Part shown: piece after piece, positions 26,580 through 62,689 of the stretch
How positions within the stretch are numbered: position 1 is the stretch's first letter
How the letters are laid out: every line of letters starts with the position of its first letter
Assembly: GCA_963759665.1 (NCBI GenBank)
Contig: CAVXAC010000002.1
Span: 482,995-546,994, forward strand
DNA length: 64,000 bases
From: Pyrinomonadaceae bacterium
GTDB taxonomy: Bacteria > Acidobacteriota > Blastocatellia > Pyrinomonadales > Pyrinomonadaceae
Direction of reading: 5' to 3'
Notes under the pieces: generated by a model
What the model saw: the letters and a program-made list of their open reading frames with translations, nothing else
Database searches by the model: none
What the model was told of the DNA's origin: nothing
Position numbers and translations under genes: made by a program

Positions 26580-26670
26580 TTTGTGCCCACCGACTTGTTG
26601 ATTTTTCAGGTGGCTAACTGAGGGTTTCTGCTGTTAGTTAGTTAGCTCGTCATCTTTAAGCTCGAAACCG

Positions 26671-27770: not shown

Positions 27771-27772
27771 AC

Positions 27773-29551
27773 ATGTGTGGCATTAGCGGTTGGTTCTTAA
27801 AGCGGGGCGAAGCGTTTGACGAGGCGCATGCGGTGGCGATGGCAGATGCCATCTCTCATCGCGGGCCGGATGATCGAGGATATTACTTCGACGCCGAGCG
27901 TGGCGTGTCGCTGGCCCACAATCGTCTGAGCATCATCGATCTCAGCGCAGCGGGTCACGAGCCCATGATCAGCGAAGACAAAGCCCACGCGCTGATCTAT
28001 AACGGCGAGCTCTACAACTTCGTCGAGCTAAAAGAGGAACTGAAGGAGCTCGGGCACACCTTCCGATCGCGAACAGACGCGGAAGTAGTCCTGAAGAGTT
28101 TTATCGAATGGGGGCCGGCATGTTTGGATCGCTTCTCAGGAATGTTTGCCTTCGCAATTTGGTCGGCTGCGTCGGGCAAGCTTTTCCTGGCACGTGATCC
28201 GATGGGAATGAAGCCGCTTTATTACACCTCGCTTCCGGGTGATAAAGGCTTCGCGTTCGCCTCCGAGATCAAAGCCTTCCTGGCCCTGCCAAACTTTGGT
28301 GTCAAAGCAAACCGGATTGCGCTGGCCCAGTTTCTGGAGTTTGGCTATACGTTTGACGAACACGCTACTTCGCTCGACGGCGTGTCTAAACTGCCACCGG
28401 GGCACTCGCTCGAAGTGGTCAATGGAATCCCCGGCACACCTCAGCCATTCTTTATCGCACCGGTTCCGGATGCGCGCGATCATCGCACTGTGCAGCAGCG
28501 GGAAGAAGAGTTGTACCAAACACTCTCCACCGTGGTCGCTCAGCATCTGGTTGCAGACGTTCCGGTTGGACTGCTTCTCTCCGGTGGTTTGGATTCGAGC
28601 ATCACTGCTGCTCTGGCGGCCCGCCACGCGAAGATTACAACGATCAGTATGGGGTTTGCGGAATCAACTGTGGACGAACGGCACTACGCACGGATCGTGG
28701 CCGATCACATCGGATCAGATCACCGTGAAGTAACGATTCACCCGCATGAAGTCAGCGACGACCTGGAAGCCGTCACCTGGTATTTCGACGACTTGTTTGC
28801 CGACTGGGGAACGGTCTCGACAAGGTTGCTCTACAAGAAGTGTCGCGAGCAGGGGATTAAGGTTGTGCTCGTTGGGGAAGGGGCAGACGAGCTATTTGGC
28901 GGTTACTCAATTTTCGATGCAGCGGTGCAGAACAGTTCCTGGCCCACGTCATGGCGGCTCTTCCAACTTTATCGTCGCTATGCCGGGCGTCGTTACGGAA
29001 ATCAGTTTCCAAGATTTCGATCGGTCATGAGAGGTTATTTACAGCAGACTGGCGATGACATGTTTGGTGCGGTCAAGTTGTTTGAATCACGCAATCAGTT
29101 GCCGAACAACTACGTGATGAAGGTAGACAAGGCGAGCATGTCAGTCAGCGTCGAAGCGCGAGCGCCGTTTCTCGATCGCCGGATTGCTGAAATCGCCTAT
29201 CGCACGCCGTCGAAATATTTGCGGGTTGGTGATTCAAATAAGGAACTCCTTCGTTCGACGGCCGAGCGCTTTGACTTGCTGCCGAGAGAGATCACGCGAC
29301 GACCCAAGTTTGGCGCGTCGATCGCGGCGTCATGGATGGACGAGTCGGAGACGTTTCGTGAGTACGCCCGCAGCGTGATTCTCGATGGGAATGGTTGGAT
29401 TGACGAGCTCGGGCTGCGGCCGGCGATGACTGACTACTTTTCCGGTAAGCGCCAGGGCTATACCTTCCCTCGCGCGATCAGCATCTTCAGCAACTTGGCG
29501 TGGCGGTTGTTGTTGTTGAATTTGTGGTCAAGACGATATGCGGCGCCGTAG
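27773..29551 (+). CDS. asparagine synthase (glutamine-hydrolysing) family amidotransferase
   Basis: 592 aa with the N-terminal MCGI nucleophile, HRGPDD, RLSIIDLS, LARDPMGMKPLYY and the PP-loop LLSGGLDSS. Confidence 0.9.
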   Translation: MCGISGWFLKRGEAFDEAHAVAMADAISHRGPDDRGYYFDAERGVSLAHNRLSIIDLSAAGHEPMISEDKAHALIYNGELYNFVELKEELKELGHTFRSRTDAEVVLKSFIEWGPACLDRFSGMFAFAIWSAASGKLFLARDPMGMKPLYYTSLPGDKGFAFASEIKAFLALPNFGVKANRIALAQFLEFGYTFDEHATSLDGVSKLPPGHSLEVVNGIPGTPQPFFIAPVPDARDHRTVQQREEELYQTLSTVVAQHLVADVPVGLLLSGGLDSSITAALAARHAKITTISMGFAESTVDERHYARIVADHIGSDHREVTIHPHEVSDDLEAVTWYFDDLFADWGTVSTRLLYKKCREQGIKVVLVGEGADELFGGYSIFDAAVQNSSWPTSWRLFQLYRRYAGRRYGNQFPRFRSVMRGYLQQTGDDMFGAVKLFESRNQLPNNYVMKVDKASMSVSVEARAPFLDRRIAEIAYRTPSKYLRVGDSNKELLRSTAERFDLLPREITRRPKFGASIAASWMDESETFREYARSVILDGNGWIDELGLRPAMTDYFSGKRQGYTFPRAISIFSNLAWRLLLLNLWSRRYAAP

Positions 29552-30520: not shown

Positions 30521-31484
30521 GTGGGTTTCGTCTCCACCATCATTCCGGTTCACAACCGTGCCTCGATGCTCAGGAGGCAGTGGCGAGCGTTCTGGCCCAG
30601 ACCTACCGGCCGATTGAGATCATCATCGTGGACGACGGCTCGACCGATGAAACTGTCCCAGTCGCCGATGAGTTAAGTTAAAGAGCATCCCGACGTAATC
30701 AGAGGTCATACAGCCAACGCAACACTGGGCCAGGATTGGCCCGTGAAGCCGGTCGTAGCCCGCAGATGGAGAATTCATCCAGTATCTGGATAGCGATGAT
30801 CTCTTGCTGTCGCGAAAGTTTGAGTTACAAGTCACAGGTCTCAAAGCTCAACCCGAATGCGGAGTCTCTTACGGCAAAACTCAATATCGTCACAGCGACG
30901 GCAGATTGGAAGACACGCCCTGGAAAGGGTCGGGCCAGAAGGTTGAAACGATGTTTCCGTCTTTCCTGCTCGATCGTTGGTGGGACACACCGACGCCGCT
31001 CTATCGAGCAAGCGTCTGGAACGAAGCTGGGCCATGGTCTGATTTGAAGCTCGAAGAGGACTGGGAATACGACTGCCGCGTCGCCTCGATGGGAGTGCGG
31101 TTGCACTACTGCGACGAGTACGTCGCTGAGGTTCGCGACCACGATCAGCAACGACTTTGCAAAGGCGAAGCAATTGACCCGCTCCGTCTCAAGGAGCGCG
31201 CAAGAGCGCATGCGCTAATCCTCTCTCATGCAGAGCGCGCCGGCATCGTCGACACGGAACCAGAAATGGAACATTTTGCCCGCGAACTGTTCCTGCTTTC
31301 GAGGCAGTGCGGCGCCGCCGGCCTCGTTGCTGAATCAAAGACTTTATTTGCTCTTGCCAAGAAAGCTTCGGGGCAGGTCCGGGCGCAGAAGTGGGATTTC
31401 AAGCTTTATGAAAAGCTTGCCGACATCACCGGCTGGCATTTCCTGGGGAAGGCTACCTGCTACTCCGACGCGTTAAGAAAATGA
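30521..31484 (+). pseudogene. family-2 glycosyltransferase, about four frameshifts in the 5' third
   Basis: VSTIIPVHNRASML | EAVASVLAQTYRPIEIIIVDDGSTDETVPVADEL | VKEHPDVIR | GPGLAREAGRS | GEFIQYLDSDDLLL... lie in alternating frames (about 30572, 30676, 30715, 30760). Confidence 0.75.
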
Positions 31485-32411
31485 GTGAAGGCCCAGACAT
31501 CTCTGTCGTGATGAGCGTCTACAACGGCGCCACTCGATTGCGCGAGACGGTCGACAGTGTTCTGTCACAGCAAGGGGTTTCGCTTGAGTTCATTATTGTC
31601 GATGACGGGTCCACGGATCAGTCGTCGGAAATTCTAAAGGAGTACGTAGAGGCTGATGCTCGCGTCAATCTCATACGTCAGGAAAATCGTGGACTCACCC
31701 GAGCGCTCATAACCGGATGTGCGCAAGCTAAGGGCAGGTACATCGCGCGCCAGGATGCCGGTGACGTTTCGTTACCGGGGCGATTGAAAAAACAACAGGA
31801 CGTTTTGGAATCAGATCCGAGCGGCTCATTTGTATCGTGCGGAACAGAGTTCGTCGGGCCTGAGCGTGAGCGCTTGTACGAAGAAATTCCGGAGTCGATC
31901 GATCTTACCGAAGCATTGCTCACCCTTGATGTTGATAAGATCAAAGGCCCAACCATGCATGGGTGCACGATGTTCCCGCGCAGAGACCTACGAACTGGTT
32001 GGAGGTTACCGATCCTCTTTTTACTTTGCACAGGATCTTGACCTTTGGGTCCGTCTAGCTGAGCGTGGCAAACATCTCGCTGTCAGGGAGATTCTTTATG
32101 AGGCCTCGCTCACGCTGGGATCGATTAGTAGCCGTTACCGGAAGCATCAGGTTGAAACAGCTCGCCTTATCCTTGAGAGCGCGGGCCTGAGGCGCGCAGG
32201 AAAAGATGATGCTGAAGTATTAGCAAGCGCGAGCAGAATCAAACCAGACATGAATGAGAAGTTTGGTCGGGCGGGGCGGGCCGACGCGCTGTATTTCATC
32301 GGGGCCTGTCTGCGCCAGAGTCGCAATCCTCATGCTCCTGATTATTTCCGCCGTGCACTCCTTACCTATCCACTCCATGTGAGGTCCGCGGTGCGACTGC
32401 TGTTTGGATGA
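31481..32411 (+). pseudogene. family-2 glycosyltransferase, one frameshift
   Basis: ISVVMSVYNGATRLRETVDSVLSQ..IIVDDGSTDQS..ARQDAGD, then the frame changes at ~31980 to ETYELVGGYRSSFYFAQDLDLWVRL. Confidence 0.8.
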
Positions 32412-39652: not shown

Positions 39653-40775
39653 ATGACTAAAGCATTGAGCTCGCCTTCCAAAAAAATCCTGCTTGTACTT
39701 CCAGAGGTTTTTAATTGTGTCGGTGGCATACAGATGTTTGGCCGGGCCCTCTGTCTCGCCGCAGGAAAATGGGCTGAGGCACATGACGGTTCGGTGAGCG
39801 CACTCGTGCTGAATGATCAGGGTGCACCTGATGCACGTTATGTGAATAGCGGGTTTGCTCGTTATGCAGGATTGGGAAAAAACAAGACCAAGCTCGTTGC
39901 CCAATTCGTGCGTCAGATTCTTGCCGAAAAATACGACTGGATCGTCTTCGGACACGTATCACTCGCTCCGCTGGCGTTGATGGCAAGAACCACCAGGCCC
40001 GGAGCAAAAACCTGCGTCATTACCTACGGAATCGAAGTGTGGCAGCCGCTGCCGCAATTGCAGCGCAAGGCTTGCGTCTAATGCCGACCTGGTGCTGGCA
40101 ATCAGCGAGTACACGAAGGATCAAGTGGTAAAGCATGCCGGCATCGCACCTGAAAAAATCAAGCTCTTCCCATGTGCGCTGGATCCATTCTGGGAAGTAC
40201 CAGAGCCTGGTCCAACCGGAGAACGTGGGCCGCTGGTCATGCTCAGCGTGACGCGTATGAATAAAGAGGACGACTACAAAGGCATCGACAACGTGATCAA
40301 GAGTTTGCCCGCGATCGTCGAGCAGGTTGGTTCGGTTGAGTACCGGATCGTTGGGCAGGGCGATGATGTTCCGCGTTTGCGTGAACTAGCTGTTGAGTTG
40401 GAGGTCGAGCGTTACGTCACTTTTCTTGGCGAGTTGTCGAACGACGAACTTCGCGAGCAGTACAAAGACTGCTCAGTCTTCGTCATGCCGAGTAGCAGGG
40501 AAGGCTTTGGCATCGTGTTCCTTGAAGCCATGGCTTATGGCAAACCTGTCGTCGGCGGGAACCATGGCGGAACGCCGTCCGTGGTTAACGATGGTGAGAC
40601 CGGGTTGCTGGTTGAAAGTTCAGATGCAGATGGCATCGCGCGTGCGATAACAAAGTTGCTGTCGGATGGTGGTCTGCGCGATCGACTTGGACGCGCCGGG
40701 CGTGAACGACTGTTGAATGAGTTTACGTTTGAAAGATTCGAGCGGAGTTTTGAGACGGCGTTTGAGCTAGGGTGA
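39653..40775 (+). pseudogene. GT4-type glycosyltransferase, one frameshift
   Basis: The N-terminal domain ends at the stop at 40079. NADLVLAISEYTKDQV...FVMPSSREGFGIVFLEAMAYGKPVVGG continues in another frame (shift ~40070). Confidence 0.8.
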
Positions 40776-43025: not shown

Positions 43026-45056
43026 ATGTGTGGAATCTGCGGAGTAATTGATTGGTCCGAGTCTCCCGACGCACCGGGGATCGTGCGTCGAATGACGCCG
43101 ACGATGAAACATCGTGGGCCAGACGACGAAGGAATTTCGGATTTCGGAATGCGGAATTCGGATTGGGGGCTAAGCGCAGAGGGCGAAGGGCAAAGGGTTA
43201 GCGAGCGAAGAGTTTCGATTGGGATGCGTCGCCTAAGCATTATTGACGTTGAAGGTGGGCACCAGCCGATGTTCAATGCCGACCGCACTGTGGCCGCAGA
43301 GCTTAACGGCGAGATCTACAACTTCCAGTCGCTGCAACAACAGTTGAGAGAGCGCGGCCACGTCTTCCACACAAGGTCAGATTCTGAGGTTGTCGCCCAC
43401 GCTTATGAAGAATGGGGCGCTGAGTGTGTCGAAAAATTTGAAGGAATGTTTGCAGTCGCAGTGTGGGACGGGCGCGCGGGGCAGGAAGCAGGAGGCGGGA
43501 CGCTGTTTTTGGCGCGGGACAGGATGGGGATTAAGCCGCTGTATTACTACGCCGGGAAAAGCAAACAGCAAACAGGCAACGGCGATCAGCTAGCCGAAAA
43601 TAGGAAGTGCTTTCTTTTCGCTTCGGAAGTACGAACGATTCTGGCAAGTGGCGTTGTTGGGCGCAGGCTTTCGCCGGAAGCCCTGGAAAGCTATTTGTTG
43701 TTTGGTTCAGTGAGTGAGCCAATGACACTTGTTGAAGGTGTGCTTTCGATTCCACCGGGACACCGGATGACCGTCACCTACGGAACTTCTGTCAGTATCC
43801 CCCAGCCTGAGCCTTACTGGACCATCCCCGGACGAACCACGACATCAGGAAATGGCTACGTAAAAGCGACTGATATTGACTCCGCCGCGGTAAAGGTCAG
43901 GGAACTGCTTGAAGCAAGTGTGCGGAAACACCTGATTGCTGATGTGCCGGTTGGTGTTTTCTTGAGCGGCGGAATTGATTCGACCGCGCTCGCCGGACTG
44001 GCGGCGAAGGAGTCAGCAGGGATCCACACGTTTACAGTGGCGTTTGCCGAAGAGGAGTTTAGCGAAGCCGACATCGCCAGGCGCACTGCAGCTACGCTTG
44101 GCACAACCCACCAGGAAGTCATGTTAACCGGCGGCGAGATGCTGGCCCGGATGGACCAGGCGGTTAGCTCTTTGGACCAGCCGTCCATGGACGGCATCAA
44201 TACCTACTTCGTATCGCAGGCGGCGCGAGAGGCGGGTTTAAAAGTTACCCTATCGGGGCTGGGTGGGGACGAAGTTTTTGGCGGCTATGAAACGTTTGCG
44301 CGCACTCCTACGCTCGAAAAAATCGGAGGTGCTGGCGGCAAGATGCCGCGTCGAGTGCGCGAAGCCGTGGCAAGTGTGGCCGGTGGCGCCGCCGGAATGC
44401 GCGCCCGCGGAGACGTGGTACGGAAGATGACGGCGTTGTGGAACGACAGCGCGTCGTTGCCACATCCATACTTTTTTGGTCGTGCACTTTTTACCCCGCT
44501 GCAGGTTAGCGAGTTGTTAACGAAACAAAGCGGAAAGAATGGAAACTCACTTTGGTGGAATTGGCTATCGGACAGCGCTGCTCGCTCGCGGAATTTCGAT
44601 CAGTTCAGTGCGGTGACTTGTTTGGAATCCCAGTCTTATCTGGTGAACACATTGCTCCGCGATACCGATTCGATGAGCATGGCGCATTCGCTCGAAGTTC
44701 GCGTTCCGTTTCTCGATCATCCATTGGTGGAGTTTGTGACGCAGCTTCCGCAGGAACTGAAACTGCAAAAAGGTCGGACAAAGTCGTTGTTGGTTCGCGC
44801 ACTGTCGGATCTATTGCCGGTGGAGGTGCTTGGAGAAAAGCGTGGATTTACTTTTCCGTGGTCCAGCTGGTTGCAGGGACCGCTGAAGGAACGCCTGGAC
44901 GAGGGCTTTGACAACTTTGCTCCGGCACTCCGAGAAGCAATGAACCAGGAGAGCGTTAAGACAATTTGGCGCGACTATCTGAGCGGAAAGACGAGTTGGT
45001 CGCGCCCCTGGAGTCTTTACGTGCTCAACGAATGGGTGAAGCGCAACCTGAGTTAG
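43026..45056 (+). CDS. asparagine synthase (glutamine-hydrolysing) family amidotransferase with three low-complexity insertions
   Basis: 676 aa with MCGICG, HRGPDD, RRLSIIDVEG, LARDRMGIKPLYY and the PP-loop FLSGGIDST. Insertions relative to the paralogue at 27773 are described in the findings. Confidence 0.9.
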   Translation: MCGICGVIDWSESPDAPGIVRRMTPTMKHRGPDDEGISDFGMRNSDWGLSAEGEGQRVSERRVSIGMRRLSIIDVEGGHQPMFNADRTVAAELNGEIYNFQSLQQQLRERGHVFHTRSDSEVVAHAYEEWGAECVEKFEGMFAVAVWDGRAGQEAGGGTLFLARDRMGIKPLYYYAGKSKQQTGNGDQLAENRKCFLFASEVRTILASGVVGRRLSPEALESYLLFGSVSEPMTLVEGVLSIPPGHRMTVTYGTSVSIPQPEPYWTIPGRTTTSGNGYVKATDIDSAAVKVRELLEASVRKHLIADVPVGVFLSGGIDSTALAGLAAKESAGIHTFTVAFAEEEFSEADIARRTAATLGTTHQEVMLTGGEMLARMDQAVSSLDQPSMDGINTYFVSQAAREAGLKVTLSGLGGDEVFGGYETFARTPTLEKIGGAGGKMPRRVREAVASVAGGAAGMRARGDVVRKMTALWNDSASLPHPYFFGRALFTPLQVSELLTKQSGKNGNSLWWNWLSDSAARSRNFDQFSAVTCLESQSYLVNTLLRDTDSMSMAHSLEVRVPFLDHPLVEFVTQLPQELKLQKGRTKSLLVRALSDLLPVEVLGEKRGFTFPWSSWLQGPLKERLDEGFDNFAPALREAMNQESVKTIWRDYLSGKTSWSRPWSLYVLNEWVKRNLS

Positions 45057-52573: not shown

Positions 52574-54175
52574 ATGCGCACCTATTTCGCTCTATTTTCG
52601 ATCGCGACATTCGCGTCGTTGGTTCTGTCGCCCCTCATCAGGCGACTCTGCGAACGGTTTCAGGTCCTGGATGTTCCGGCGGACAGCCGCCGAATCCATC
52701 AACGAGCGACACCCCGACTCGGTGGGATTGCCATCTTCCTTTCAGTGATGCTGGCGCTCTCATCAATTCCCCTCGTTTCGAATCTGCTTACGCAATCGTT
52801 ACAGACCTACACCTCAACGATCTTCATGATCCTGGTACCTTCGACGCTCGTGTTCCTGCTGGGAGTTTACGACGATGTGCGCGGAACGAATGCGGTCGTA
52901 AAGTTCATCGGCCTCGGGATGATCGCCGCGTTGTTTTTCGCGATGGGTGGCAGAATTGAGGCTCTCGGTATCCCATTCATGGGAACTATTCAATTCCCGC
53001 CCGTCGTTAGTTTCCTTATTACGGTCCTTTGGCTGGTGGGGATTTCCAACGCTTTCAATTTAATAGATGGAATGGACGGACTCGCATCAGGCGCCGCGCT
53101 GTTCGCTTCGATTGTGATTTTTGTGGTAGCCGTTGCCAGCGGCAACCCTTTGATGATTGTGGTGGCCCTTGTGGTTAGCGGCGCCCTTACCGGTTTTCTT
53201 CGATACAACTTCAACCCTGCATCAATATTCCTCGGCGACTCGGGCGCCCTCTTTGTAGGCTTTCTATTAGCAGCCCTTTCGATCGTGAGCGCTCAAAAAG
53301 CGACCACTGCAGTAGCGGTCATCACTCCCTTGCTGGCGTTTGGTTTGCCGGTGGTAGACACCAGTGTGACCATGGTCCGCCGAATGATCAGCCGGCGACC
53401 GATCTTTGAAGGCGATGGTGAGCACATTCATCACATGATGCTCGCCCGTGGGTTATCGCAACGACAGGTGGTACTAATCCTGTATGGCGTTTGCGCGATC
53501 TTCGGACTCGTTGCCGCACTCTCGACCACCACATCATCGCCGGTGACCGGTCTCGTCTTGTTTGTGATTGCCGTGGCGGTCCTGGTCGCAGTGGGCCACT
53601 TGCGCTACCACGAAGTTGATGAGCTTCGGGCAGGAGTCAGGCGCACCGTTGGCGGCCGGCGCGTTCGTGTGGCTAACAACATCCGCGTGCGGCGAGCAAG
53701 CCTTGCGCTTTCCAAAGCGTCAAATCTTGATGAGCTTTTCGAAGCGCTCAGCCAGATGCTTGAGTTCGAGGAATTTGCCTTCGCGAATGCGCAGCTTGGT
53801 TACCTTGGACGAGGTGAACCAAACATGCGCGCATTCAACGCCAGTCATCAACGCGGACGTACTCCGAATATAGAATTCCGGAATAATCGGGTAACCTGGA
53901 GCTGGAAGAAAAGTGGCATGAAGGAAGAAGTGATCGGCTCCTCAAAATACTGGGGTTTCCGGTTGCCCCTGGCAAACGATAGTGGTGACTGGGGTTGGAT
54001 GAATCTCTATCGCTCTCTGGATAGCCCGCCCTTGCTTCTGGAGATGGATTACGTGGCGGGGATCCTGCGAGTCGAACTTTCGGCTGCCGCCGAACGCATC
54101 TTTCGCAGCTTCGAGAAACCATACAGCTCAAGTCATTCAAATCTTCACGTGGGCGCGAAGAAGGTCACCGGATAG
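52574..54175 (+). CDS. polyprenyl-phosphate HexNAc-1-phosphate transferase (WecA/MraY family) with extra C-terminal domain
   Basis: 533 aa with 10-11 TM segments, NAFNLIDGMDGLASG, FLGDSGALFVGF and HIHH. A soluble C-terminal extension of ~170 aa follows. Confidence 0.85.
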   Translation: MRTYFALFSIATFASLVLSPLIRRLCERFQVLDVPADSRRIHQRATPRLGGIAIFLSVMLALSSIPLVSNLLTQSLQTYTSTIFMILVPSTLVFLLGVYDDVRGTNAVVKFIGLGMIAALFFAMGGRIEALGIPFMGTIQFPPVVSFLITVLWLVGISNAFNLIDGMDGLASGAALFASIVIFVVAVASGNPLMIVVALVVSGALTGFLRYNFNPASIFLGDSGALFVGFLLAALSIVSAQKATTAVAVITPLLAFGLPVVDTSVTMVRRMISRRPIFEGDGEHIHHMMLARGLSQRQVVLILYGVCAIFGLVAALSTTTSSPVTGLVLFVIAVAVLVAVGHLRYHEVDELRAGVRRTVGGRRVRVANNIRVRRASLALSKASNLDELFEALSQMLEFEEFAFANAQLGYLGRGEPNMRAFNASHQRGRTPNIEFRNNRVTWSWKKSGMKEEVIGSSKYWGFRLPLANDSGDWGWMNLYRSLDSPPLLLEMDYVAGILRVELSAAAERIFRSFEKPYSSSHSNLHVGAKKVTG

Positions 54176-55596
54176 TGTCCCGGCTCGCCACCTCAGAATT
54201 CGTTGAAGGCAGCAGAACGCTTGCGAGGCCGCGGATTGCGGGCCTACTTGGGACCATCATATTCAGTGGTCTCGTCGGGCTTCTTGTCATCACCGCAATC
54301 CCTTACGGGACCATAGAGGCTTGGTGGAAGGCGTTCTTCGTCTGCGCAGTCTTGACGTTGACGATTCTCTGGCTGATTGAGGGTTATGTCAGCGGGAGTT
54401 GGATCGATGACGGCATGTCGATAATTCTGCCGATGGCGGCCCTGGTATTGTTTGCGTTTCTCCAGACCGTGCCCTTTGGCCATCAGACCGCTCCGGGACT
54501 AACTGCCGCAATCGCGAAAACCGTCAGTGTCGATCCGTCTCAAACACGTTTCTTCGCACTCCAGCTGCTGAGCCTAACTCTTGCGGGATTGCTCCTGTTT
54601 CGTTATGCGTCGACGGAAAGGCGCATGCGAGTTCTGATTGCCGTGATCATTGCACTCGGAGTTGCGAGTGCAATATTTGGCATCCTCCGGCAAACCACAC
54701 AACGTTCACTCGGTTTTGGGTTGCCCCTGCTGCAGATGATTGGCGGCTATGGGCAATTTATCAACCGGAACCATTTCGCCTACCTGATGGAGATGGGCTT
54801 TGGGCTAACGCTTGGGTTAGTAGTTGCGCGCGGCGTCAAACGAGACAAGCTCCTGCTCTACGTTGCTGCCATCTTGCCGTTATGGATGGCGCTGGTACTT
54901 AGTGGCTCGCGCGGCGGGTTGTTTGCCATGATGGCCCAGGTGGTCGCTGCCGCTTTGCTTTTCGACATGGTGGTGAGAAGTCGCGACTTTTCAGAACCTG
55001 TTTCCAAACTCGTTTCAATTGCCAGATCGCTCCCGGTGAGATTGGGACTTTTGGTGGTATTGATCTGCGGCGTCGCCGTTGGCACGTTGTGGATGGGCGG
55101 AGATCCGTTAGCGGCGAGGGTTGAAGAGGCGCGCACCCAGCTTAGCTCTGATACAACTGACAGAAGCGGGGTAAGTCGCAGCGAGATCTGGAGGGCGTCG
55201 CGGGCCATGTTTTTCGCCAATCCGATCCTTGGTGTCGGCATGGGCGCCTACTGGGCGACGATTCCAAGATTTCACAATGCTTCCGGCTCCATGACGCCGC
55301 AACAAGCGCATAACGACTATTTAGAAGTACTTGCCAGCGGGGGAGTGGTTGGTTTTGCAATCCTTGCCTGGTTTGCGGTGGCAGTTTTCCGGCGAACGAA
55401 AGAAAACTTACGATCGGCAAATCATTTCCGGGGCGCCGCCGCCTTTGGGGCCGCCATCGGAATTGTGGGTGTGGCGGTCCACAGTCTGGTGGACTTTGGA
55501 CTGCACATCATGATTAATGCGTTCATGTTTACAACGCTGGTAGTTATTGCTACATCGAAACCCCGCTGGTCCAATCGATTGGTCGACGAAACCTGA
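54175..55596 (+). CDS. Wzy_C-domain protein (O-antigen ligase / polymerase / O-oligosaccharyltransferase family)
   Basis: 473 aa, polytopic, with SGSRGGLFAMM and QQAHNDYLEVLASGGVVGF, typical of PF04932. The GTG start overlaps the upstream stop. Confidence 0.8.
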   Translation: MSRLATSEFVEGSRTLARPRIAGLLGTIIFSGLVGLLVITAIPYGTIEAWWKAFFVCAVLTLTILWLIEGYVSGSWIDDGMSIILPMAALVLFAFLQTVPFGHQTAPGLTAAIAKTVSVDPSQTRFFALQLLSLTLAGLLLFRYASTERRMRVLIAVIIALGVASAIFGILRQTTQRSLGFGLPLLQMIGGYGQFINRNHFAYLMEMGFGLTLGLVVARGVKRDKLLLYVAAILPLWMALVLSGSRGGLFAMMAQVVAAALLFDMVVRSRDFSEPVSKLVSIARSLPVRLGLLVVLICGVAVGTLWMGGDPLAARVEEARTQLSSDTTDRSGVSRSEIWRASRAMFFANPILGVGMGAYWATIPRFHNASGSMTPQQAHNDYLEVLASGGVVGFAILAWFAVAVFRRTKENLRSANHFRGAAAFGAAIGIVGVAVHSLVDFGLHIMINAFMFTTLVVIATSKPRWSNRLVDET

Positions 55597-57566
55597 TGAA
55601 ACCCTCTGGAAATTTGAAATTAGCCATTGCGCTGGTGGTGCTGCTGGCGATGTTGAATCTGGCAGTCGGGGCCGTGGTGCTTCAGGGCCTGGGTGGTGGT
55701 GCGGGCTCATTCCAGGGCCAGGACATCATGGGTGGCGCATCCATTATTGTTAAGAAGCCGCAACGGTCGCGTGACCTCGGGGGCGCCGTTTCGATGTTGC
55801 AGGTTAAACGTCAGCCAAAGGCTACCGTGCGACCTGAAGTTGCCAGAAACAATCCTCCACCCAGACCCGAAGTCGCCAGAAATAACCCACCGCCTGATAG
55901 ACGAAGGTCAAGGCGTATCCCTGTTGAGCCCGATACAGACACAACTCCAACAGTCACTGATGCTGACCAGGCCGAAGCTTTTAAAGACCAGGGAAATAGA
56001 TATTACGACCTTTCAAATTTTCCGAAAGCGGTTGAGGCTTATCAAAACGCGTTAAAGCACGCGCCAAAAGATCCAGTCATCTACAACAACCTGGGTGCTG
56101 CTCATTTCGCTCGAGGCGAGAATAATGAAGCCGTAGAAGCCTTCAAGAAGGCACTGAGTTTGAAGGCGAATGATCCGGACGCCCACTTCAATTTGGGTAT
56201 CGCGTACAGCACTCTGGAAAAACATGCTGAAGCAATCAGCGCTTTCAAAGAAGCGGTCAAATACAAACCCGATTGGGCTGAAGCCTACAACGCACTGGGC
56301 GACAGTTATCTAAGTTTGAGTCGTTTCGAAGAAGCAGCCAAAGCATACGAAGAAACGATCAAACTAAAGCCGGATAATGCGACAGCGACCAGTAATCTGG
56401 GTTACGCATACGACAAACTCGGGAAGCAGGCCGAGTCAATTGCAGCGCTACAACAAACGGTCAAACTTAAGCCAGATGATGCAGTTGCCTATAACAACCT
56501 TGGCGCCAGCTTCTATAAGAGTGGTCGGTACCAGGAGGCCGTCGAAGCCTTCAGCAATGCGATCCGTCTAAAACCAAACGATCCCGAAGCGCTGAATAAC
56601 CTAGGCGCTGCCTATTACATCACCGAACAGTATCCAAAGGCGTTGGAAGCTTTTCTTAATGCCACCAGGGTGAAACCCGATTTTGCTGATGCTCAGTACA
56701 ATCTTGGGAATGCGTATTACAAATCTAATAAGTATCCCGAGGCGACTAAAGCTTATCGGGAAGCTATCAAACTAAAGCCGGACTATGCAGAAGCTCGGAC
56801 CAACCTTGGCAGTTTGCTGATTTCGCTCGGTGACTATACCCAGGCGGTAACTGAATTAGGCGAAGCCATCAAGCTGAAGCCTGACAACCCCGTTTCGCAC
56901 AACAACCTCGGCTACGCGTATGTGAAAATTGGAGAGGCGGCCAGCGAAAAGACTGCAGCTGTTGGCTACTATCAACGGGCGGTGGCTTCCTACAAGGAAG
57001 CGCTTCGGCTAAGACCGGATTATGCGAAGGCGCTCAACAACCTTGGGGTGGTCCTTAACAAACTTGCAGACTATCCCGGTGCAGTTGAAGTGTTGAAGAA
57101 GGCCATTCAGATCAAACCTGATTTTCCAGAAGCCTACTACAACCTGGGAACAGGCTATTACAACCTGGGCCAATTCAGCGACGCAGTGACCGCCTTACAG
57201 CAAGCCGTCAAACTCAAGCCTGACTTTTCCGACGCTCAGAATAGTCTGGGGTCGGCGCTTTACCAGGCACAACAATTTGACGCAGCGATCGAGGCTTACA
57301 AGAAGACGCTGGTGCTGTCGCCGGATAGTGCAGAGACCCACAATAATCTCGGCAAAGTCTACGTTCGCACCAAGCGATATAAAGAGGCTGTGGGTTCATT
57401 CAAAGCGGCCATTGCCATCAAGCCAGGGTTTGGCGAGGCTCACTTCAATCTAGCGATTACTCACGTCGCCTTGGGTGACAAGAAGGCGGCCCTCGCGGAG
57501 TACGAGCTGCTGCGCACCCTGGATCCGCGGCTGGCCCAGGAGTTTTTACGGATAACTACTCGATAA
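55596..57566 (+). CDS. membrane-anchored TPR-repeat protein
   Basis: 656 aa with an N-terminal TM segment and a Pro/Arg-rich linker carrying the direct repeat PEVARNNPPP x2, followed by about 15 consecutive 34-aa TPR units (A..Y..AI.LKPD..A..NLG). The ATG overlaps the upstream TGA. Confidence 0.9.
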   Translation: MKPSGNLKLAIALVVLLAMLNLAVGAVVLQGLGGGAGSFQGQDIMGGASIIVKKPQRSRDLGGAVSMLQVKRQPKATVRPEVARNNPPPRPEVARNNPPPDRRRSRRIPVEPDTDTTPTVTDADQAEAFKDQGNRYYDLSNFPKAVEAYQNALKHAPKDPVIYNNLGAAHFARGENNEAVEAFKKALSLKANDPDAHFNLGIAYSTLEKHAEAISAFKEAVKYKPDWAEAYNALGDSYLSLSRFEEAAKAYEETIKLKPDNATATSNLGYAYDKLGKQAESIAALQQTVKLKPDDAVAYNNLGASFYKSGRYQEAVEAFSNAIRLKPNDPEALNNLGAAYYITEQYPKALEAFLNATRVKPDFADAQYNLGNAYYKSNKYPEATKAYREAIKLKPDYAEARTNLGSLLISLGDYTQAVTELGEAIKLKPDNPVSHNNLGYAYVKIGEAASEKTAAVGYYQRAVASYKEALRLRPDYAKALNNLGVVLNKLADYPGAVEVLKKAIQIKPDFPEAYYNLGTGYYNLGQFSDAVTALQQAVKLKPDFSDAQNSLGSALYQAQQFDAAIEAYKKTLVLSPDSAETHNNLGKVYVRTKRYKEAVGSFKAAIAIKPGFGEAHFNLAITHVALGDKKAALAEYELLRTLDPRLAQEFLRITTR

Positions 57567-57621: not shown

Positions 57622-57650
57622 TTGACTTAGAGTCCCTTGAGGCGTACATT
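57622..57650 (+). promoter_or_regulatory. candidate sigma70-like promoter upstream of the first FecR-like gene
   Basis: TTGACT (57622-57627), 17-nt spacer, TACATT (57645-57650). A GGAGGA Shine-Dalgarno lies 6 nt before the ATG at 57703. Confidence 0.3.
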
Positions 57651-57702: not shown

Positions 57703-58353
57703 ATGAACACTCGACGTTCAAAAGGGATCAAGGCCATTGCAGTTCTATTGACATTCGCTGTGGTCCAGATTTCCCTCCAACTCGGCCTTGCTGCCCCGGT
57801 TGCGTCCGCTACGTCAACACTCTCACCTCAGGGTGTCATTGGGCGGATCACAATTAACGGAAGTTCCCCTGCCACCATTAACGGTAACAATGCCGTCAGC
57901 GGAGACAGCGTCCCGGCGGGAGCGTTGGTCCAAACACCGGCGGGTACCGAAGCTACGATTGACCTGGGACCGCTCGGTTCAGTCAAGCTGGAAGGCAACA
58001 CCAGAGCCCGCATTGATTATGTGTGTCCGCCTGATGCCCTGGCGAACCCGAATCCAGAAGCTTGCAAAGTAACTGTTACCGTCCTGGCCGGGTGTGTTGT
58101 CACAAACTACAATCAGGGTACCCGCCATGAAGTTTTCAATGATAAGCAGAAGCGGATTGCACAGAGTGATTCCGACAGAGAGAAATCCGGCGGCGGCACT
58201 CTCCGGACTTGCTATGACATTCCTCCTGCCGGAGTAGCAACTGCCGGAGGCATTGGGAAGACTGGCCTGATCGCGCTGATCGCTGCGGCCGCCATCATTC
58301 CTCCTGTGATTATTCTGGCTGGTGGGGACGACCCCAGTCCGGCGACTCCATAA
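57703..58353 (+). CDS. secreted FecR-like domain protein with conserved C-terminal hydrophobic segment and GGDDPSPATP tail (paralogue 1)
   Basis: Signal peptide MNTRRSKGIKAIAVLLTFAVVQ..LAAP. FecR-like stretch GRITINGSSPATINGNNAVSGDSVPAGALVQTPAGTEATIDLGPLGSVKLEGNTRARI. C-terminus GGIGKTGLIALIAAAAIIPPVIILAGGDDPSPATP. Confidence 0.8.
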   Translation: MNTRRSKGIKAIAVLLTFAVVQISLQLGLAAPVASATSTLSPQGVIGRITINGSSPATINGNNAVSGDSVPAGALVQTPAGTEATIDLGPLGSVKLEGNTRARIDYVCPPDALANPNPEACKVTVTVLAGCVVTNYNQGTRHEVFNDKQKRIAQSDSDREKSGGGTLRTCYDIPPAGVATAGGIGKTGLIALIAAAAIIPPVIILAGGDDPSPATP

Positions 58354-58375
58354 GTTGCAACATTCGTTGCTCTTT

Positions 58376-58410
58376 AGCGTGCCCACTAATTTAGGTGGGC
58401 ACGCTTTTTC
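58376..58410 (+). terminator. rho-independent terminator
   Basis: AGCGTGCCCAC-taatttag-GTGGGCACGCT followed by TTTTT, 22 nt after the stop codon. Confidence 0.75.
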
Positions 58411-58593
58411 ATTTGCTGTTAATCTATTCCCAGCGTCACGCTGTCTCAACTTCACGGGTTGCAATGACGTGAGGTCAGTACGAAACTCGCAGACTCTTGA
58501 TGTAGCCGCCATGATCGGTTAGCATCCTTTTACCCCGACGGGATTGTGGTAAGAATCCGTCCCAGTTCGCCCAGATCAGACGAAAAGGTTCTT

Positions 58594-59280
58594 ATGACAA
58601 AAAGCATTCGCCGAAGGGCATTCGGAGCTACGCTTCTCGCAGCGGTTACCATCGCCCAAATAACACTTCTACCCGGATACGCGCAGACGCTCTTCCCAGC
58701 GTTGACAACTATCTTGCCGCAACAGCAGATGTTGGCGCGTGTCACGACAACGGGGAATCGCCCCATCTCAATCAACGGTATTAGCGCCGCAAGCGGCGAT
58801 AGCGTCGCAACTAATGCGACCATTGAAACGCCGCCGGGCGTGGCTGCCACGATCGACCTGGGTGCACTAGGTAAGTTCGATTTGCCTCCAGGTTCAAAGA
58901 TACTGCTCGAGTTTGACGAGAACTGTAAGGATCCGGAGAAGACCCCGGCCACTGACGATCCGAATGACCGGCGATGCAAGGCGAGAGCTACGGTCATTGC
59001 TGGTTGCGTGTCGGGCACCGCAGGCAAAAAAGGTTCAAGAGTGGAAATCGCCACGCAGCAGGAAGGCCTAATCGCTGACAGCGAGAGTGAAAAGAAAAAG
59101 AAGAAGAATGGCGGAGGCTTCATTACAGGTTGCGCCGGCGGTGTAGTACCGCCTCCCGCAGTCGCTGGCGGTGGGATTGGCACACCGGGCATCATCGGAA
59201 TAATTGGAGCAGCGGTAGCTGTTCCAACCATTATTATTCTCGCGACCGGCGGCGACGACCCGAGTCCCGCTACTCCCTAG
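58594..59280 (+). CDS. secreted FecR-like domain protein with conserved C-terminal hydrophobic segment and GGDDPSPATP tail (paralogue 2)
   Basis: Signal peptide MTKSIRRRAFGATLLAAVTIAQ. FecR-like ARVTTTGNRPISINGISAASGDSVATNATIETPPGVAATIDLGALGKFDLPPGSKILLEF. C-terminus GGGIGTPGIIGIIGAAVAVPTIIILATGGDDPSPATP. Confidence 0.8.
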   Translation: MTKSIRRRAFGATLLAAVTIAQITLLPGYAQTLFPALTTILPQQQMLARVTTTGNRPISINGISAASGDSVATNATIETPPGVAATIDLGALGKFDLPPGSKILLEFDENCKDPEKTPATDDPNDRRCKARATVIAGCVSGTAGKKGSRVEIATQQEGLIADSESEKKKKKNGGGFITGCAGGVVPPPAVAGGGIGTPGIIGIIGAAVAVPTIIILATGGDDPSPATP

Positions 59281-59302: not shown

Positions 59303-59329
59303 TATGCCCGCCGCAGTTTGGCGGGCATA
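59303..59329 (+). terminator. stem-loop after paralogue 2 (no T-tract)
   Basis: TATGCCCGCC-gcagttt-GGCGGGCATA, 23 nt after the stop. Confidence 0.4.
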
Positions 59330-59375: not shown

Positions 59376-60644
59376 ATGCCGAACAACTCCGGATTCTCTT
59401 CAAATCGCTACCTCCGTTTGCTGCTGGTTGTGGTTGCAGTCGCGATCTGTCTTTGGGCGATCCGCGCCGCGGCAACCTTTGGTATCGCCCGGCTTTTTGT
59501 CCGGTACGCACTAGTAACCCGAAGTCAGGATGCTGCGCGAACGGCTACGCAACTGACGCCGAATGATGCGCAGGCACAGATCACTGCAGCAACACTCGCC
59601 AACATTTCCGGTTCCCACGCCGAGACACTTGTGGCCGTGGAGAAAGCCATCGCGGCCAGGCCTGCCGATTACTCGCTCTGGGTCGCGTTAGGACTTATCC
59701 GCGATCAGATGGGCGATACGGCGGGAGCCCTCGCAGCGTTTGATCAGGCCGTCCAGTTAGCTCCCCATTATTCCCAGCCTCGGTGGCAACGAGGGAACGT
59801 GCTGTTGCGCGCAGGACAATACGATTCGGCATTCAAGGATCTGAATTCCGCAGTTCAAAGCAATCCGGTTCTAATCCCAAAATTGCTCGATCTGGCCTGG
59901 GGATTAAGCCGTGGAGACCCGGCGAAGACGGAATCAATGGTCCAGATTCAGTCGCCTAAGATACACCTCGCTTTTGCGCAATTGTTGGCGCGAGAAGGGA
60001 AGGCTCAGGAATCGTTGGCGCACTGGAGAGCTGCGGGGGCACCGGGAGAAGACTTTCAACGAGCTCTGCTTAAGCAACTTCTGGAAAAGCGTGCTTACAA
60101 GGAAGCCTATTCTGTTTGGCAGGCTGGAAAGACATCTGGGTCAACAGGCAACGCCCCACTCGAAGATGGAGGGTTCGAAGGCACTTTGATGCTAAGCGAA
60201 GAGGGTTTTGGTTGGAGAGTGCCAGGCAATTTAACGGCTGCGAACCTGACTCTTGATGCAACCGATCATCATAGTGGTGGCAAAAGCATACTGATCAGTT
60301 TTCAAGGCGCCTCAGACTCAGCATCGCCAGTCCTTTCCCAACTAACGATTGTTGAGCCAGCCAGTCGTTACAAATTGAACTTCGCCGCCCGTTCAGATGA
60401 GATTGTTTCTGGTGGTCCACCGATCGTGGTGGTGAGAGATGCTGCCGACGGCAAGTTGCTTGGACAATCGCCGGCACTCAATAAGGGGACGGCAACGTGG
60501 CAAGCCTTCAGTGTTGAGTTTAGCTCTTTACCTGAGACTGCCGCAGTTGTAGTGAGTGTCCAGCGCGAAAGTTGTACCACTGCGCCTTGTCCCATTTTTG
60601 GTTCACTTTGGTTAGACAGTTTTTCATTGGAACGCTTGAAGTGA
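59376..60644 (+). CDS. membrane-anchored TPR protein with C-terminal beta-sandwich (CBM-like) domain
   Basis: 422 aa with an N-terminal TM segment and TPR-like repeats. The C-terminal ~170 aa start with EDGGFEG..GWRV and end with WLDSFSLE, resembling CBM4/9-type jelly-rolls. Confidence 0.65.
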   Translation: MPNNSGFSSNRYLRLLLVVVAVAICLWAIRAAATFGIARLFVRYALVTRSQDAARTATQLTPNDAQAQITAATLANISGSHAETLVAVEKAIAARPADYSLWVALGLIRDQMGDTAGALAAFDQAVQLAPHYSQPRWQRGNVLLRAGQYDSAFKDLNSAVQSNPVLIPKLLDLAWGLSRGDPAKTESMVQIQSPKIHLAFAQLLAREGKAQESLAHWRAAGAPGEDFQRALLKQLLEKRAYKEAYSVWQAGKTSGSTGNAPLEDGGFEGTLMLSEEGFGWRVPGNLTAANLTLDATDHHSGGKSILISFQGASDSASPVLSQLTIVEPASRYKLNFAARSDEIVSGGPPIVVVRDAADGKLLGQSPALNKGTATWQAFSVEFSSLPETAAVVVSVQRESCTTAPCPIFGSLWLDSFSLERLK

Positions 60645-60694: not shown

Positions 60695-61585
60695 TTGTCG
60701 GAATCAACCTTGCCCCATTTAAAAACGCCTTCCGAAGCTATGGCGAAGGTCGATCGGCTCGGTTGGTCGGTGGGATTTTCTCTTACTGCTTACGGAGTTC
60801 GTGTGGGGCTGCGGTCAAACAACGCTGAGGTTTTGGATCGGGTCCAGGAAGCTCTCCCTGGCAAGTGGAAGGAATCAAAATTAAAAGAAGTCGATCGTTT
60901 GTATTCGTTTCATAGCACCGGTTTTAGCGGCAACGGAAGCTCGAAACGCTTTGGACAACTCTATGGCGACCACGTTCGGCTGGCGAGAACAAAGGACTTT
61001 GAACGGATGCTTGAAGCATTCGACTCCGACTTTCGGATCTTTGTGGCGGAGTTCGCCAGTCACCACGTGTTTGTTCACGCCGGAGCAGTAGGCTGGAAAG
61101 GTCAGGGCATCATTGTTCCTGGTCGTAGTTACAGCGGAAAATCAACTCTGATCGTGGAGTTAGTTCGCGCGGGCGCCACTTACTACTCTGACGAATACGC
61201 GGTGATTGATGCCCAGGGGCGTTTGCATCCTTTCATAAAGCCGATTGAACTTCGCGAAGAGGAGTCCTACCAACAATCAAAGCTAAATTTTGAGGACATC
61301 GGCGGACGCGCCGGGACTAAACCACTTCCGATTGGACTGGTATTGATGACTAAGTTTAAGGATGGAGCGAAATGGCGGCCGCGCAAGCTTAGTCCGGGAA
61401 AAGGCGTTCTGGAGATATTGGCCAATACCGTTTCAGCACGGCGGGATCCGCAGAGGGCGTTTGAATCGTTAGAGCGAGTTGTCGCCCGAGCCGATGTGTT
61501 GCAGGGGCCCCGAGGCCAGGCTACCGAAGTGGTTCCCGCCATTCTGAGGCGACTGGAAAAATCGATTAGCACTACCGCGCGATAA
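60695..61585 (+). CDS. HPr-kinase-related P-loop kinase (HprK C-terminal-domain-like)
   Basis: VFVHAGAVGWKGQGIIVPGRSYSGKSTLIVELVRAGATYYSDEYAVID matches the HprK/P catalytic core. TTG start, with an alternative ATG at 60740. Confidence 0.7.
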   Translation: MSESTLPHLKTPSEAMAKVDRLGWSVGFSLTAYGVRVGLRSNNAEVLDRVQEALPGKWKESKLKEVDRLYSFHSTGFSGNGSSKRFGQLYGDHVRLARTKDFERMLEAFDSDFRIFVAEFASHHVFVHAGAVGWKGQGIIVPGRSYSGKSTLIVELVRAGATYYSDEYAVIDAQGRLHPFIKPIELREEESYQQSKLNFEDIGGRAGTKPLPIGLVLMTKFKDGAKWRPRKLSPGKGVLEILANTVSARRDPQRAFESLERVVARADVLQGPRGQATEVVPAILRRLEKSISTTAR

Positions 61586-61609: not shown

Positions 61610-62689
61610 TTGAAACGCAAAGACAACACACGCACGGGCCGTCTGCTGGCCGCGACACTTGAAGGATCCTGGCGGAGCTCTGATTTTCCGCCGCTCACAA
61701 TTTCGGAAACCGAGCTGGATGAGCTGACCCCGCTACTTTGTGCTTCAGGAGCGGCGGCACTTGCCTGGCGACGAATTAGCCAGACTGAGCTAAAGGATTC
61801 CGCCTCAGCAGAAGTCTTGCATCACGCAGCCAGACTGCAATCGCTGCAAACTGCGATGCACGAAGAGAAAGTTGAAAAGACTTTCCGACTTCTCGAGAAC
61901 CATTCGGCAGATGCACTTCTGGCTAAAGGCTGGGCCGCTGCGAATCTCTATTCAGATCGCGACCTTCGCCCATCAGGTGATATCGATATTCTTGTCACAC
62001 GAGCGGATTTTAAACGGGTCCAGGAGATCCTCAGGCGTCCTGAGGCAAACGATTGCTGGGTGGATCTTCACAAGGACTTCGACGAATTTCCTGAGCGTAC
62101 GGTGGAGGAGTTGTTCGCGCGTTCGAGGCTGGTTCGGCTCGGCGAAACCACGATTCGCATGCTTGGTACTGAAGATCTGCTCGCCTTACTTTGTATTCAT
62201 TTTCTAAAGCACGGGGCATGGCGACCCTTGTGGCTGTGTGACGTCGCGGCGGCAATCGAGTCGTTACCGTCAGACTTTGATTGGGAAGTTTGCCTGGGCC
62301 GTAGTGAAACCCGATCACAATGGATTCAGTGCGTCATCAAGTTGGCACGCCAGCTATTGGGTGCTGAGCCTGCCCATCTCCCGTTTTCAGCTAATCCAGA
62401 TGGTTTGCCTGGCTGGTTAGTTGAGAATGTGCTCCGGCAGTGGGCCACGCCGTTCGCTGCTGACCAGGCTCCGATGAATCATCCGCTTCCCATGGCCGAG
62501 TTGGTGCGCCGGCCGTCGGAATGGGCAAGAGGTCTTGGTGGTCGTTGGCCCAACCCGATTCTTGCGACAGTCAGCGTCGGAGGAAGTTTCAATGAATTTC
62601 CCCGGTTTCCATATCAGTTGGCGAATTGCGTATCGCGTGCTGGTCAATTTGTGATTCATGGGATTAAGGGTTCAAGCGACGCTGACTAG
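61610..62689 (+). CDS. uncharacterised nucleotidyltransferase family protein (PF14907-like)
   Basis: 359 aa. The RPSGDIDILVTRADF motif and overall length are typical of the NTP_transf_5 family, which commonly sits next to HprK-related kinases. Confidence 0.65.
   Translation: MKRKDNTRTGRLLAATLEGSWRSSDFPPLTISETELDELTPLLCASGAAALAWRRISQTELKDSASAEVLHHAARLQSLQTAMHEEKVEKTFRLLENHSADALLAKGWAAANLYSDRDLRPSGDIDILVTRADFKRVQEILRRPEANDCWVDLHKDFDEFPERTVEELFARSRLVRLGETTIRMLGTEDLLALLCIHFLKHGAWRPLWLCDVAAAIESLPSDFDWEVCLGRSETRSQWIQCVIKLARQLLGAEPAHLPFSANPDGLPGWLVENVLRQWATPFAADQAPMNHPLPMAELVRRPSEWARGLGGRWPNPILATVSVGGSFNEFPRFPYQLANCVSRAGQFVIHGIKGSSDAD

Follow-up and report, generated by a model that had tools for sequence, protein, structure and literature searches.

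A conserved [N/D]-P-S-P tail behind a hydrophobic segment in a family of FecR-like proteins of the Blastocatellia

Introduction

Why should two neighbouring genes, whose products have drifted far apart, encode proteins that end in precisely the same ten residues? The question is raised by a stretch of 64,000 nucleotides from a Pyrinomonadaceae bacterium (contig CAVXAC010000002.1, positions 482,995 to 546,994; the whole of this stretch is called the window below), in which two genes, B1 and B2, stand in tandem and both specify the C-terminus GGDDPSPATP behind a Gly-rich motif and a hydrophobic segment. The original prediction, made from the DNA letters, took this ending for a new C-terminal module and offered three readings of it: a sorting or anchoring signal, a cytoplasmic tail phosphorylated on Ser or Thr, or an acceptor for O-glycosylation. 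The organisms concerned, the Blastocatellia and Pyrinomonadales, are abundant soil Acidobacteria for which there is very little experimental genetics.

The C-terminal module is real, had not been annotated before and is specific to the family of a single, lineage-restricted protein. Judged by their sequences, B1 and B2 belong to a family of small exported FecR-like proteins that is restricted to the Blastocatellia and has not been characterised.

The tail peptide and its conservation

B1 (57703..58353) encodes a protein of 216 aa that starts with MNTRR and B2 (58594..59280) one of 228 aa that starts with MTKSI. Both genes, and all features of their products located below, lie on the + strand, and the two proteins have the same architecture of a signal peptide, a FecR-like beta domain and the C-terminal module. 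The bodies have diverged as strongly as was first noticed (38% identity, E 8e-31 in BLASTP). Among the related loci compared, a tandem pair occurs only in the clade of the window, and an orthologue of B1 (P0013) is present in a Pyrinomonadaceae metagenome-assembled genome (MAG). The shared ending holds for a hydrophobic segment of about 20 residues with an internal Pro and for GGDDPSPATP, which are found in both proteins; the AGGIG motif, however, which had been ascribed to both, stands just before the segment in B1 only (58243..58257) and is replaced by GGGIG in B2 (59167..59181). The family consensus is G-G-[IL]-[GS], one Gly of which is invariant in alignment A2. The hydrophobic segment comprises residues 187-206 of B1 (TGLIALIAAAAIIPPVIILA, 58261..58320) and 198-218 of B2 (PGIIGIIGAAVAVPTIIILAT, 59185..59247). 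The tails are encoded at 58321..58350 and 59248..59277, with the codon of the conserved Ser at 58336-58338 in B1 and at 59263-59265 (Ser224) in B2.

The codon strings originally given for the two tails are exact: six of the ten codons differ between B1 and B2, and all six differences are synonymous. Over the whole genes, 57 of the 93 residues that are identical in the two proteins use different codons, which means that the synonymous sites are near saturation. The synonymous divergence of the tail equals this gene-wide background, and gene conversion could therefore be ruled out as the source of the tail identity. A run of ten identical residues is improbable at about 40% identity (about 1e-4 per position), and orthologues retain the same tail. 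The claim that the peptide is under purifying selection is thus upheld by a synonymous divergence at background level in combination with an unchanged peptide; judged from the codons, the identity of the tail is maintained at the protein level.

Nevertheless, the exact decapeptide is less important than it had been taken to be. What is conserved is a wider motif, G-x-[N/D]-P-S-P, located one to four residues from the C-terminus and shared by over 120 homologues and by 70 species-level loci; by alignment, GGDDPSPATP is a clade variant of this motif and [N/D]-P-S-P its conserved core. The C-terminal consensus of the family reads ...GGGIGTEALVAILAGGGALAAGLIWAFHGGGNPSP[S/H/R]-COOH. A sequence logo was anchored on the Ser adjacent to Pro near the C-terminus, which is present in 126 of the 129 family members examined. 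Relative to this Ser (position 0, the anchor and as such not counted), the 126 sequences have Gly at position -4 in 115 cases, Gly in 87 and Asp in 22 cases at -3, Asn in 113 and Asp in 10 cases at -2, Pro at -1 in 122 and again Pro at +1 in 115. The C-terminus lies two residues past the Ser in 90 of the 126, whereas most others end in x-T-P-COOH. The conserved Ser is found three to five residues from the C-terminus, and 54 of 115 family members end in Ser-COOH.

The tail Ser is invariant in alignments A1 and A3 and conserved to at least 90% in the 124-sequence alignment A4, a level that matches the conservation of the beta-domain core. Such near-invariance suggests that the Ser makes a specific contact or is modified. 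Over their last 12 residues, 79 of the 129 members have a net charge of zero and 21 a positive one (e.g. LTRGGNPSPAR); for the tails in the window the charge is -2. The acidic character of the tail and the Pro within the hydrophobic segment, both pointed out at the outset, are true of B1 and B2 but confined to the clade of the window. N-glycosylation of the N-P-S sequence was considered and ruled out, given the Pro at the X position, the Asn to Asp replacement in the window and the probably cytoplasmic location of the tail.

Distribution of the module and the question of a sorting signal

A search of 5.8 billion proteins found 324 homologues, mostly of about 205 aa, and those bearing a source name belong to Pyrinomonadaceae or Acidobacteriota MAGs. 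A scan for related loci, with one genome per GTDB species and an alignment of 12 sequences as the query, yielded 70 species-level loci, all from Blastocatellia/Pyrinomonadales MAGs (Chloracidobacterium sp. included) and with one to three copies per genome. In addition, a profile of 43 positions, limited to the C-terminal module, was compared with 1.84 billion representative proteins, with no word filters applied. It gave 11 matches at E <= 1e-3: nine members of the B family, a repeat protein of 497 aa and a low-complexity match. With nine of the 11 matches in the B family, the module is family-specific and not a shared sorting tag. The repeat protein (P0129), in which a hydrophobic segment is followed by GNNNPSNKKSGGK, was judged a chance or compositional match and rejected as a carrier. 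A loose search for a hydrophobic C-terminus with a Ser/Pro tail in about 1.2 Mb of related loci returned 79 open reading frames (ORFs), 69 of them from the B family and the others spurious. The module is not covered by any Pfam or NCBIfam model and was thus rightly called previously unrecognised. The other proteins with this ending that the databases had been expected to hold do exist in large number, but essentially all of them fall within one family.

It was on account of its layout that the module had been likened to the tripartite sorting signals, i.e. LPXTG/sortase, PEP-CTERM/exosortase, GlyGly-CTERM/rhombosortase and MYXO-CTERM/myxosortase. The likeness is genuine, as the B proteins combine a signal peptide with a Gly motif, a hydrophobic segment and a short tail, and as their genes reside in an exopolysaccharide locus, like those of PEP-CTERM systems. 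One could thus imagine a dedicated, cleavable signal, where the hydrophobic segment would hold the protein only transiently, until a membrane enzyme cuts near GG[IL]G and the beta domain is released or attached to a lipid or glycan. The position of the Gly motif at the outer edge of the segment, the marginal, Gly/Ala-rich nature of that segment and a tail that starts with Arg in about one third of the family would all suit such a role. However, known sorting tags have a basic tail and are found on many unrelated proteins of a genome (PMC11980579), whereas the B module is confined to one family with one to three copies per genome, rather than dozens of unrelated proteins, and has a tail formed by [N/D]-P-S-P, acidic in the window, instead of a basic cluster. 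The strongest conservation, that of P-S-P, is on the presumed cytoplasmic side, where the known signals are merely basic in composition. The invariant Cys is found 15-40 residues upstream of the hydrophobic segment and not directly before it. In line with the earlier statement that no known signature motif is present, no NCBIfam sorting-domain model matched at E <= 1; the motif that is present is the G-G-[IL]-[GS] described above. Moreover, neither the scanned ORFs of the window nor the conserved gene core yielded an exosortase, sortase, rhomboid or CPBP enzyme, although an unlinked enzyme elsewhere in the genome is possible, and no evidence of cleavage was found either. The distribution does not support a new sorting signal, and we consider a cleavable signal of this kind very unlikely.

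The beta domain, its topology and a membrane anchor

A Sec signal peptide is predicted for residues 1-30 of both proteins, with the presumed cut marked here by a slash: ...QLGLA/AP in B1 (57703..57792), which aligns with the family consensus QLSFA/AP, and ...LPGYA/QT in B2 (58594..58683), where A30 and Q22 are nearly invariant. The basic n-region, the h-region and the nearly invariant Ala at -1 (position 30) are conserved across 124 family sequences. B1 and B2 have four aligned Cys each. Two of these, C138 and C180 in the numbering of B2, are invariant in the 124 family members, and the extra pair sits in a loop that is specific to the clade of the window. The family alignment supports the signal peptides that had been noticed in the two proteins and, of their conserved Cys pairs, the invariant C138-C180 pair, which is consistent with a periplasmic disulfide.

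The AlphaFold2 (AF2) model, built with 124 sequences, has residues 45-180 of B2 (58726..59133, with both invariant Cys) as a confident beta domain, at a predicted local distance difference test score (pLDDT) above 90. The FecR likeness of this domain holds at the family level, where PF04773 (FecR) matches 14 of 26 relatives with a best E of 1.6e-7, but B1 and B2 themselves have no match to PF04773 at E <= 1, nor to any other of the Pfam and NCBIfam models. A Foldseek comparison of the B2 model with the PDB gave nothing at E <= 1e-3; the best geometric matches were PupR (6ovk_R) and BDI_1681 (4m0n), over about 81 columns at a root-mean-square deviation of about 3 A and with a probability of only 0.14-0.20. 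At the family level the label 'FecR-like' is reasonable.

Like the FecR/PupR regulators, the B proteins would have a periplasmic beta domain, distantly related to that of FecR, and a single membrane-spanning segment, and could pass information across the membrane. Their orientation would nevertheless be reversed, with the periplasmic domain at the N-terminus behind a signal peptide and the membrane segment at the C-terminus, and the cytoplasmic part would count only about ten residues and lacks an anti-sigma domain. No gene for an extracytoplasmic function (ECF) sigma factor or a TonB-dependent transducer was found near B, and no sigma factor gene in the conserved core.

A second group of paralogues, of 335-410 aa and with clearer similarity to PF04773, is found in loci L027, L029, L030, L031, L040, L048, L050 and L051, in most of them at about 9470-10560. 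Most of their tails consist of a hydrophobic segment, T or K, an acidic run and [IV]-S-P-[SA]-[RK]-COOH, which fits S-P-x-[R/K]; the protein of L050 ends in ...PISGST instead. The genomic contexts of this group are mutually unrelated (PBP1A, TolB/S41 peptidase, VWA protein), and a search for conserved neighbours of the paralogues of about 335 aa found none.

The combination of a cleaved N-terminal signal peptide with one C-terminal hydrophobic segment would leave the tail on the cytoplasmic side. In about one third of the family the segment is directly followed by Arg or Lys, as in LTRGGNPSPAR, which agrees with such a location, and we regard a cytoplasmic tail as probable, with some room for doubt. 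The reading of the C-terminal module that we prefer, tentatively and at a little short of an even chance, is that of a permanent membrane anchor with a short cytoplasmic motif for helix capping or docking. B would be exported via its Sec signal peptide and be held in the inner membrane by the Gly/Ala-rich segment, as a type I, uncleaved anchor, such that the beta domain with its putative C138-C180 disulfide resides in the periplasm. There it may act together with the downstream protein C, which has TPR repeats and a CBM-like domain, and with the glycan-assembly enzymes of the WecA-like and Wzy_C type that are described below. The G-x-[N/D]-P-S-P tail would then be a juxtamembrane motif of 7-12 residues in the cytoplasm, in which Gly, Asn/Asp and Pro could end and cap the helix at the cytoplasmic face of the membrane, and in which the nearly invariant Ser would be displayed for contact with, or modification by, a cytoplasmic partner. 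A candidate for this partner is the C-terminal extension of about 190 aa of the WecA-like enzyme, proposed by elimination because it is the only sizeable cytoplasmic domain in the minimal core.

The persistence of the tail in loci where kinase or NTP-transferase genes are absent nearby counts in favour of an anchor with a docking or capping tail. The hydrophobic segment consists for 48% of Ala and Gly with small-xxx-small spacing, a composition that would suit helix packing against partner membrane proteins. A glycine-zipper hairpin of two helices was ruled out, the hydrophobic stretch being only about 21 residues long.

Several observations weigh against such an anchor. The hydrophobic segment is marginal: a crude Hessa sum gives a family median of -0.16 kcal/mol (+0.30 for B1 and -0.18 for B2) versus -1.23 kcal/mol for the anchor of C. 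The C-terminal flank is more positive than the N-terminal flank in 73 of 126 members, which is a weak bias, and the tail of the window clade is acidic. In the AF2 model the C-terminal module is unstructured and the hydrophobic segment is without a helix (pLDDT 35-50). In seven of the loci with paralogues of 335-410 aa an S-P-x-[R/K] tail, TRDDDEVISPSR or similar, follows the hydrophobic segment, with no core neighbours. The conserved gene order to which the anchor reading appeals can, within one bacterial class, partly reflect shared ancestry instead of function. Finally, a pure helix cap leaves the near-invariance of the Ser unexplained.

The conserved gene neighbourhood and possible modification of the tail

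From about 7 to 62 kb the window forms one large polysaccharide locus, with genes for Wza, Wzc, an ABC-2 transporter, two Gmd, aminotransferases, many glycosyltransferases of GT2 and GT4, two Asn synthases, a carbamoyltransferase and GT87. B1 and B2 are located in its last part, in a row of genes on the + strand. This row contains a WecA/MraY-type phosphoglycosyl transferase (52574..54175), a Wzy_C membrane protein of 473 aa (O-antigen ligase family; 54175..55596; PF04932, E 7e-22), protein A (55596..57566), directly upstream of B1, and, beyond B2, the proteins C (59376..60644), D (60695..61585) and E (61610..62689). A, which is exported and 656 aa long, has about 14 TPR repeats. C is anchored at its N-terminus, has TPR repeats and ends in a CBM_4_9-like domain; it always follows B, also in locus L005, a second paralogue locus. 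D is a P-loop kinase with the HprK/PEPCK fold, weakly related to HprK-related kinase A, and E a protein with the nucleotidyltransferase fold of NTP_transf_5 (PF14907). The Wzy_C enzyme, TPR proteins and HprK-like kinase that had been named as neighbours are thus all in place. The conserved C-terminal cytoplasmic extension of the WecA-like enzyme (53588-54172) has no Pfam or PDB match and is conserved even in the distant locus L077. The N-terminal region of A (about 55815-55900) contains an 11-residue unit, RPEVARNNPPP, twice in tandem within a linker that is very basic and rich in Pro; in orthologues the unit occurs once.

Gene order was counted in 53 species-level loci, namely those in which the B gene is complete and followed by 5 kb or more of sequence. 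The order WecA-like (532-534 aa), Wzy_C, A, B, C is found in 46 of these 53. After C, the kinase D is present in 30 of the 46 and a PqqD-like protein of about 160 aa, F, in 16; four loci have both D and F and four have neither, while E is found in at least 42. The distant locus L077 retains the WecA-like gene, Wzy_C (inverted), B and C, but A is absent and neither D, F nor E follows C. In L005 only B' and C' are kept; the gene of 326 aa that follows C there was ruled out as a divergent kinase, since it has no similarity to D. The minimal linked set therefore is WecA-like, Wzy_C, B and C.

Otherwise tightly packed, the gene row has sizeable intergenic gaps only on either side of B1 and B2, which suggests that the two are under separate expression control. 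A terminator-like hairpin with a 12-bp stem followed by a T run is located directly 3' of the stop codon of B1 (58376..58405, +). A promoter-like site, TTGACT-17-TACATT, is found upstream of B1 (57622-57650), and a second GC-rich hairpin, without a T run, follows the stop codon of B2 (59303-59328; ATGCCCGCC...GGCGGGCAT). An Rfam scan of 55-62 kb gave no match.

The composition of the minimal set brings up the possibility that the tail is periplasmic and serves as an O-glycosylation acceptor for the neighbouring Wzy_C protein, which would then be an O-oligosaccharyltransferase. TfpO and TfpM are Wzy_C proteins of 420-470 aa that glycosylate the C-terminal Ser/Thr of an adjacently encoded protein (PMC9829042). 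Here, too, a Wzy_C gene of similar size is found near the gene of a small exported protein with a conserved Ser/Thr/Pro-rich C-terminus, with the gene for a lipid-linked glycan initiator beside it, and WecA-like initiator, 473-aa Wzy_C enzyme and small exported protein could well make up a dedicated module. The tails and their extensions are rich in Ser, Pro and Thr (e.g. PSPSSPSTP and TTSPSSPPNQ), and the membrane integration on which a cytoplasmic tail depends is uncertain, given the marginal hydrophobicity and the lack of a helix in the AF2 model. Glycosylation would, however, require the opposite topology, whereas the signal peptide with one segment, and the Arg/Lys after that segment in about one third of the family, favour a tail in the cytoplasm. 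Unlike the acceptors of TfpO and TfpM, B does not belong to the pilins and has a hydrophobic segment ahead of its probably cytoplasmic C-terminus; its conserved Ser is followed by further residues, and the window proteins end in Pro. The Wzy_C protein is below the cutoff of every O-oligosaccharyltransferase model (19.6 bits on the TfpM model versus a cutoff of 600), its best match is IctB, and with Wza and Wzc encoded in the window it may simply be a polymerase or ligase. In addition, paralogues retain the tail without a Wzy_C gene nearby. Gene A separates the Wzy_C gene from B in the window; in L077 Wzy_C adjoins B but is divergently oriented. Altogether, glycosylation of the tail by the Wzy_C protein seems to us quite improbable.

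The genes downstream of C raise another possibility, namely that the HprK-fold kinase D covalently modifies the tail Ser in the cytoplasm and that E decorates it further; the tail peptides in question would be WAFHGGGNPSPS and ILATGGDDPSPATP. The parallel is with lasso peptides: in their precursors the C-terminal Ser is phosphorylated by HPr-kinase homologues, and the phosphate receives hexose from PsmN, an 'uncharacterized NTP transferase' (PMC6993621, PMC8498205). As in those systems (PadeK/PsmK with PsmN), genes for an HprK-fold kinase and a nucleotidyltransferase are located side by side, near a gene for a protein with a conserved Ser close to its C-terminus. The kinase D is a credible one: Foldseek aligns its structure with 3tqf_B (TMt 0.65) and 1kkl_B (0.57) and returns HprK/P and PEPCK at probability 1.0, the Walker A motif is intact, the acidic pair S-D-E is invariant in 56 homologues, and TIGR04352 is matched at E 2e-15, with a score below the cutoff of that model. 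The frequency with which D and E occur after B and C, the near-invariance of the Ser and the many chains that end in Ser-COOH all favour this idea. The same holds for the 26 loci that keep D and E without F, where the pair must have a substrate other than F.

Yet perfect NPSP tails occur with F but without D in loci L032, L039, L054, L059, L061, L063, L072 and L073, and L077, L005 and the paralogue loci have the motif too, with neither D nor E in the vicinity. Since the tail is kept in loci that lack D or E, it is older than any link to these two proteins. The Ser is three to five residues from the end and not terminal (...ATP closes both window proteins), the would-be substrate is not a peptide but a protein of about 200 aa, and no lasso cyclase or protease genes are present here. 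Moreover, D, F and E together look like a self-contained peptide-modification cassette in which F may be its own substrate, an arrangement that resembles the 'HPr-rel-A system' of NCBI, and E may not belong to the PsmN family. We regard modification of the tail by D and E as unlikely, albeit worth keeping in mind. A more specific version, in which the cassette of HprK-related kinase and NTP_transf_5 protein beside polysaccharide loci finds its missing protein substrate in the [N/D]-P-S-P tail, whose Ser would receive a phosphate on the cytoplasmic face and perhaps be phosphoglycosylated or nucleotidylated there, appears decidedly doubtful. If it were true, modification of the tail would couple the state of the periplasmic polymer, via a membrane-anchored sensor, to the initiation of glycan synthesis, and B would be the first target of this enzyme pair that is not a RiPP, a peptide made on ribosomes and modified after translation.

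The protein F has an N-terminal PqqD-like domain (weak TIGR03859 and TIGR04248 matches) and an internal segment that resembles a signal peptide, NRRxMVRALGLAA.VAVPVVTSIVAPTPAQA/A, and ends in 25-35 aa of Cys-rich peptide, as if a precursor had been joined to the domain that recognises it. Its place in the 16 of 46 loci is between the genes of the HprK-like kinase and NTP_transf_5; examples of F are found at L061:12419-12898, at L032:12136-12708 and, duplicated in tandem, at L054:12260-12766 and 13036-13536. F is absent from the window, where D ends at 61585 and E starts at 61610. PDB sequence searches with D, E and the C-terminal extension of the WecA-like enzyme gave nothing useful, and the literature on PF14907 and HPr-rel-A was not informative, nor was that on Blastocatellia exopolysaccharide and FecR.

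Other features of the polysaccharide locus

A run of short ORFs on the + strand at about 22000-27800 (255, 115, 126, 158, 221, 181, 142 and 123 aa) contains DegT and GT4 matches that span half of the Pfam profiles, and further glycosyltransferase genes of half length are found at 40092-40775 and 31481-32041. These look like genes split by frameshifts, pseudogenes or assembly indels. The two Asn synthases of the locus are full-length, glutamine-dependent homologues (27773-29551 and 43026-45056). Several neighbours in the locus have weak, below-cutoff matches to NCBIfam models associated with XrtA/PEP-CTERM (PrsT, stp3, PEP_O_lig_1, HprK_rel_A), and no exosortase was seen among the scanned ORFs of the window.

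Conclusions

B most likely serves the WecA-like/Wzy_C/TPR core of glycan assembly as an accessory protein in the periplasm: a FecR-like protein anchored by a single membrane pass, with a tail that is unusual, sharply conserved and not basic. With this analysis, a family that lacked annotation has been delimited in no fewer than 70 species-level genomes; it combines a sharply conserved C-terminal motif with a place in a conserved core of glycan-assembly genes. If the module is only an anchor, its value is limited to better annotation, for instance in the form of a new domain model, together with the caution that a tripartite-looking C-terminus is insufficient to call a sorting signal. If, on the other hand, the tail is modified or docked, it points to a link between the assembly of polysaccharide in the periplasm and its initiation in the cytoplasm, and might supply a substrate for the uncharacterised cassette of HprK-related kinase and NTP_transf_5 protein.

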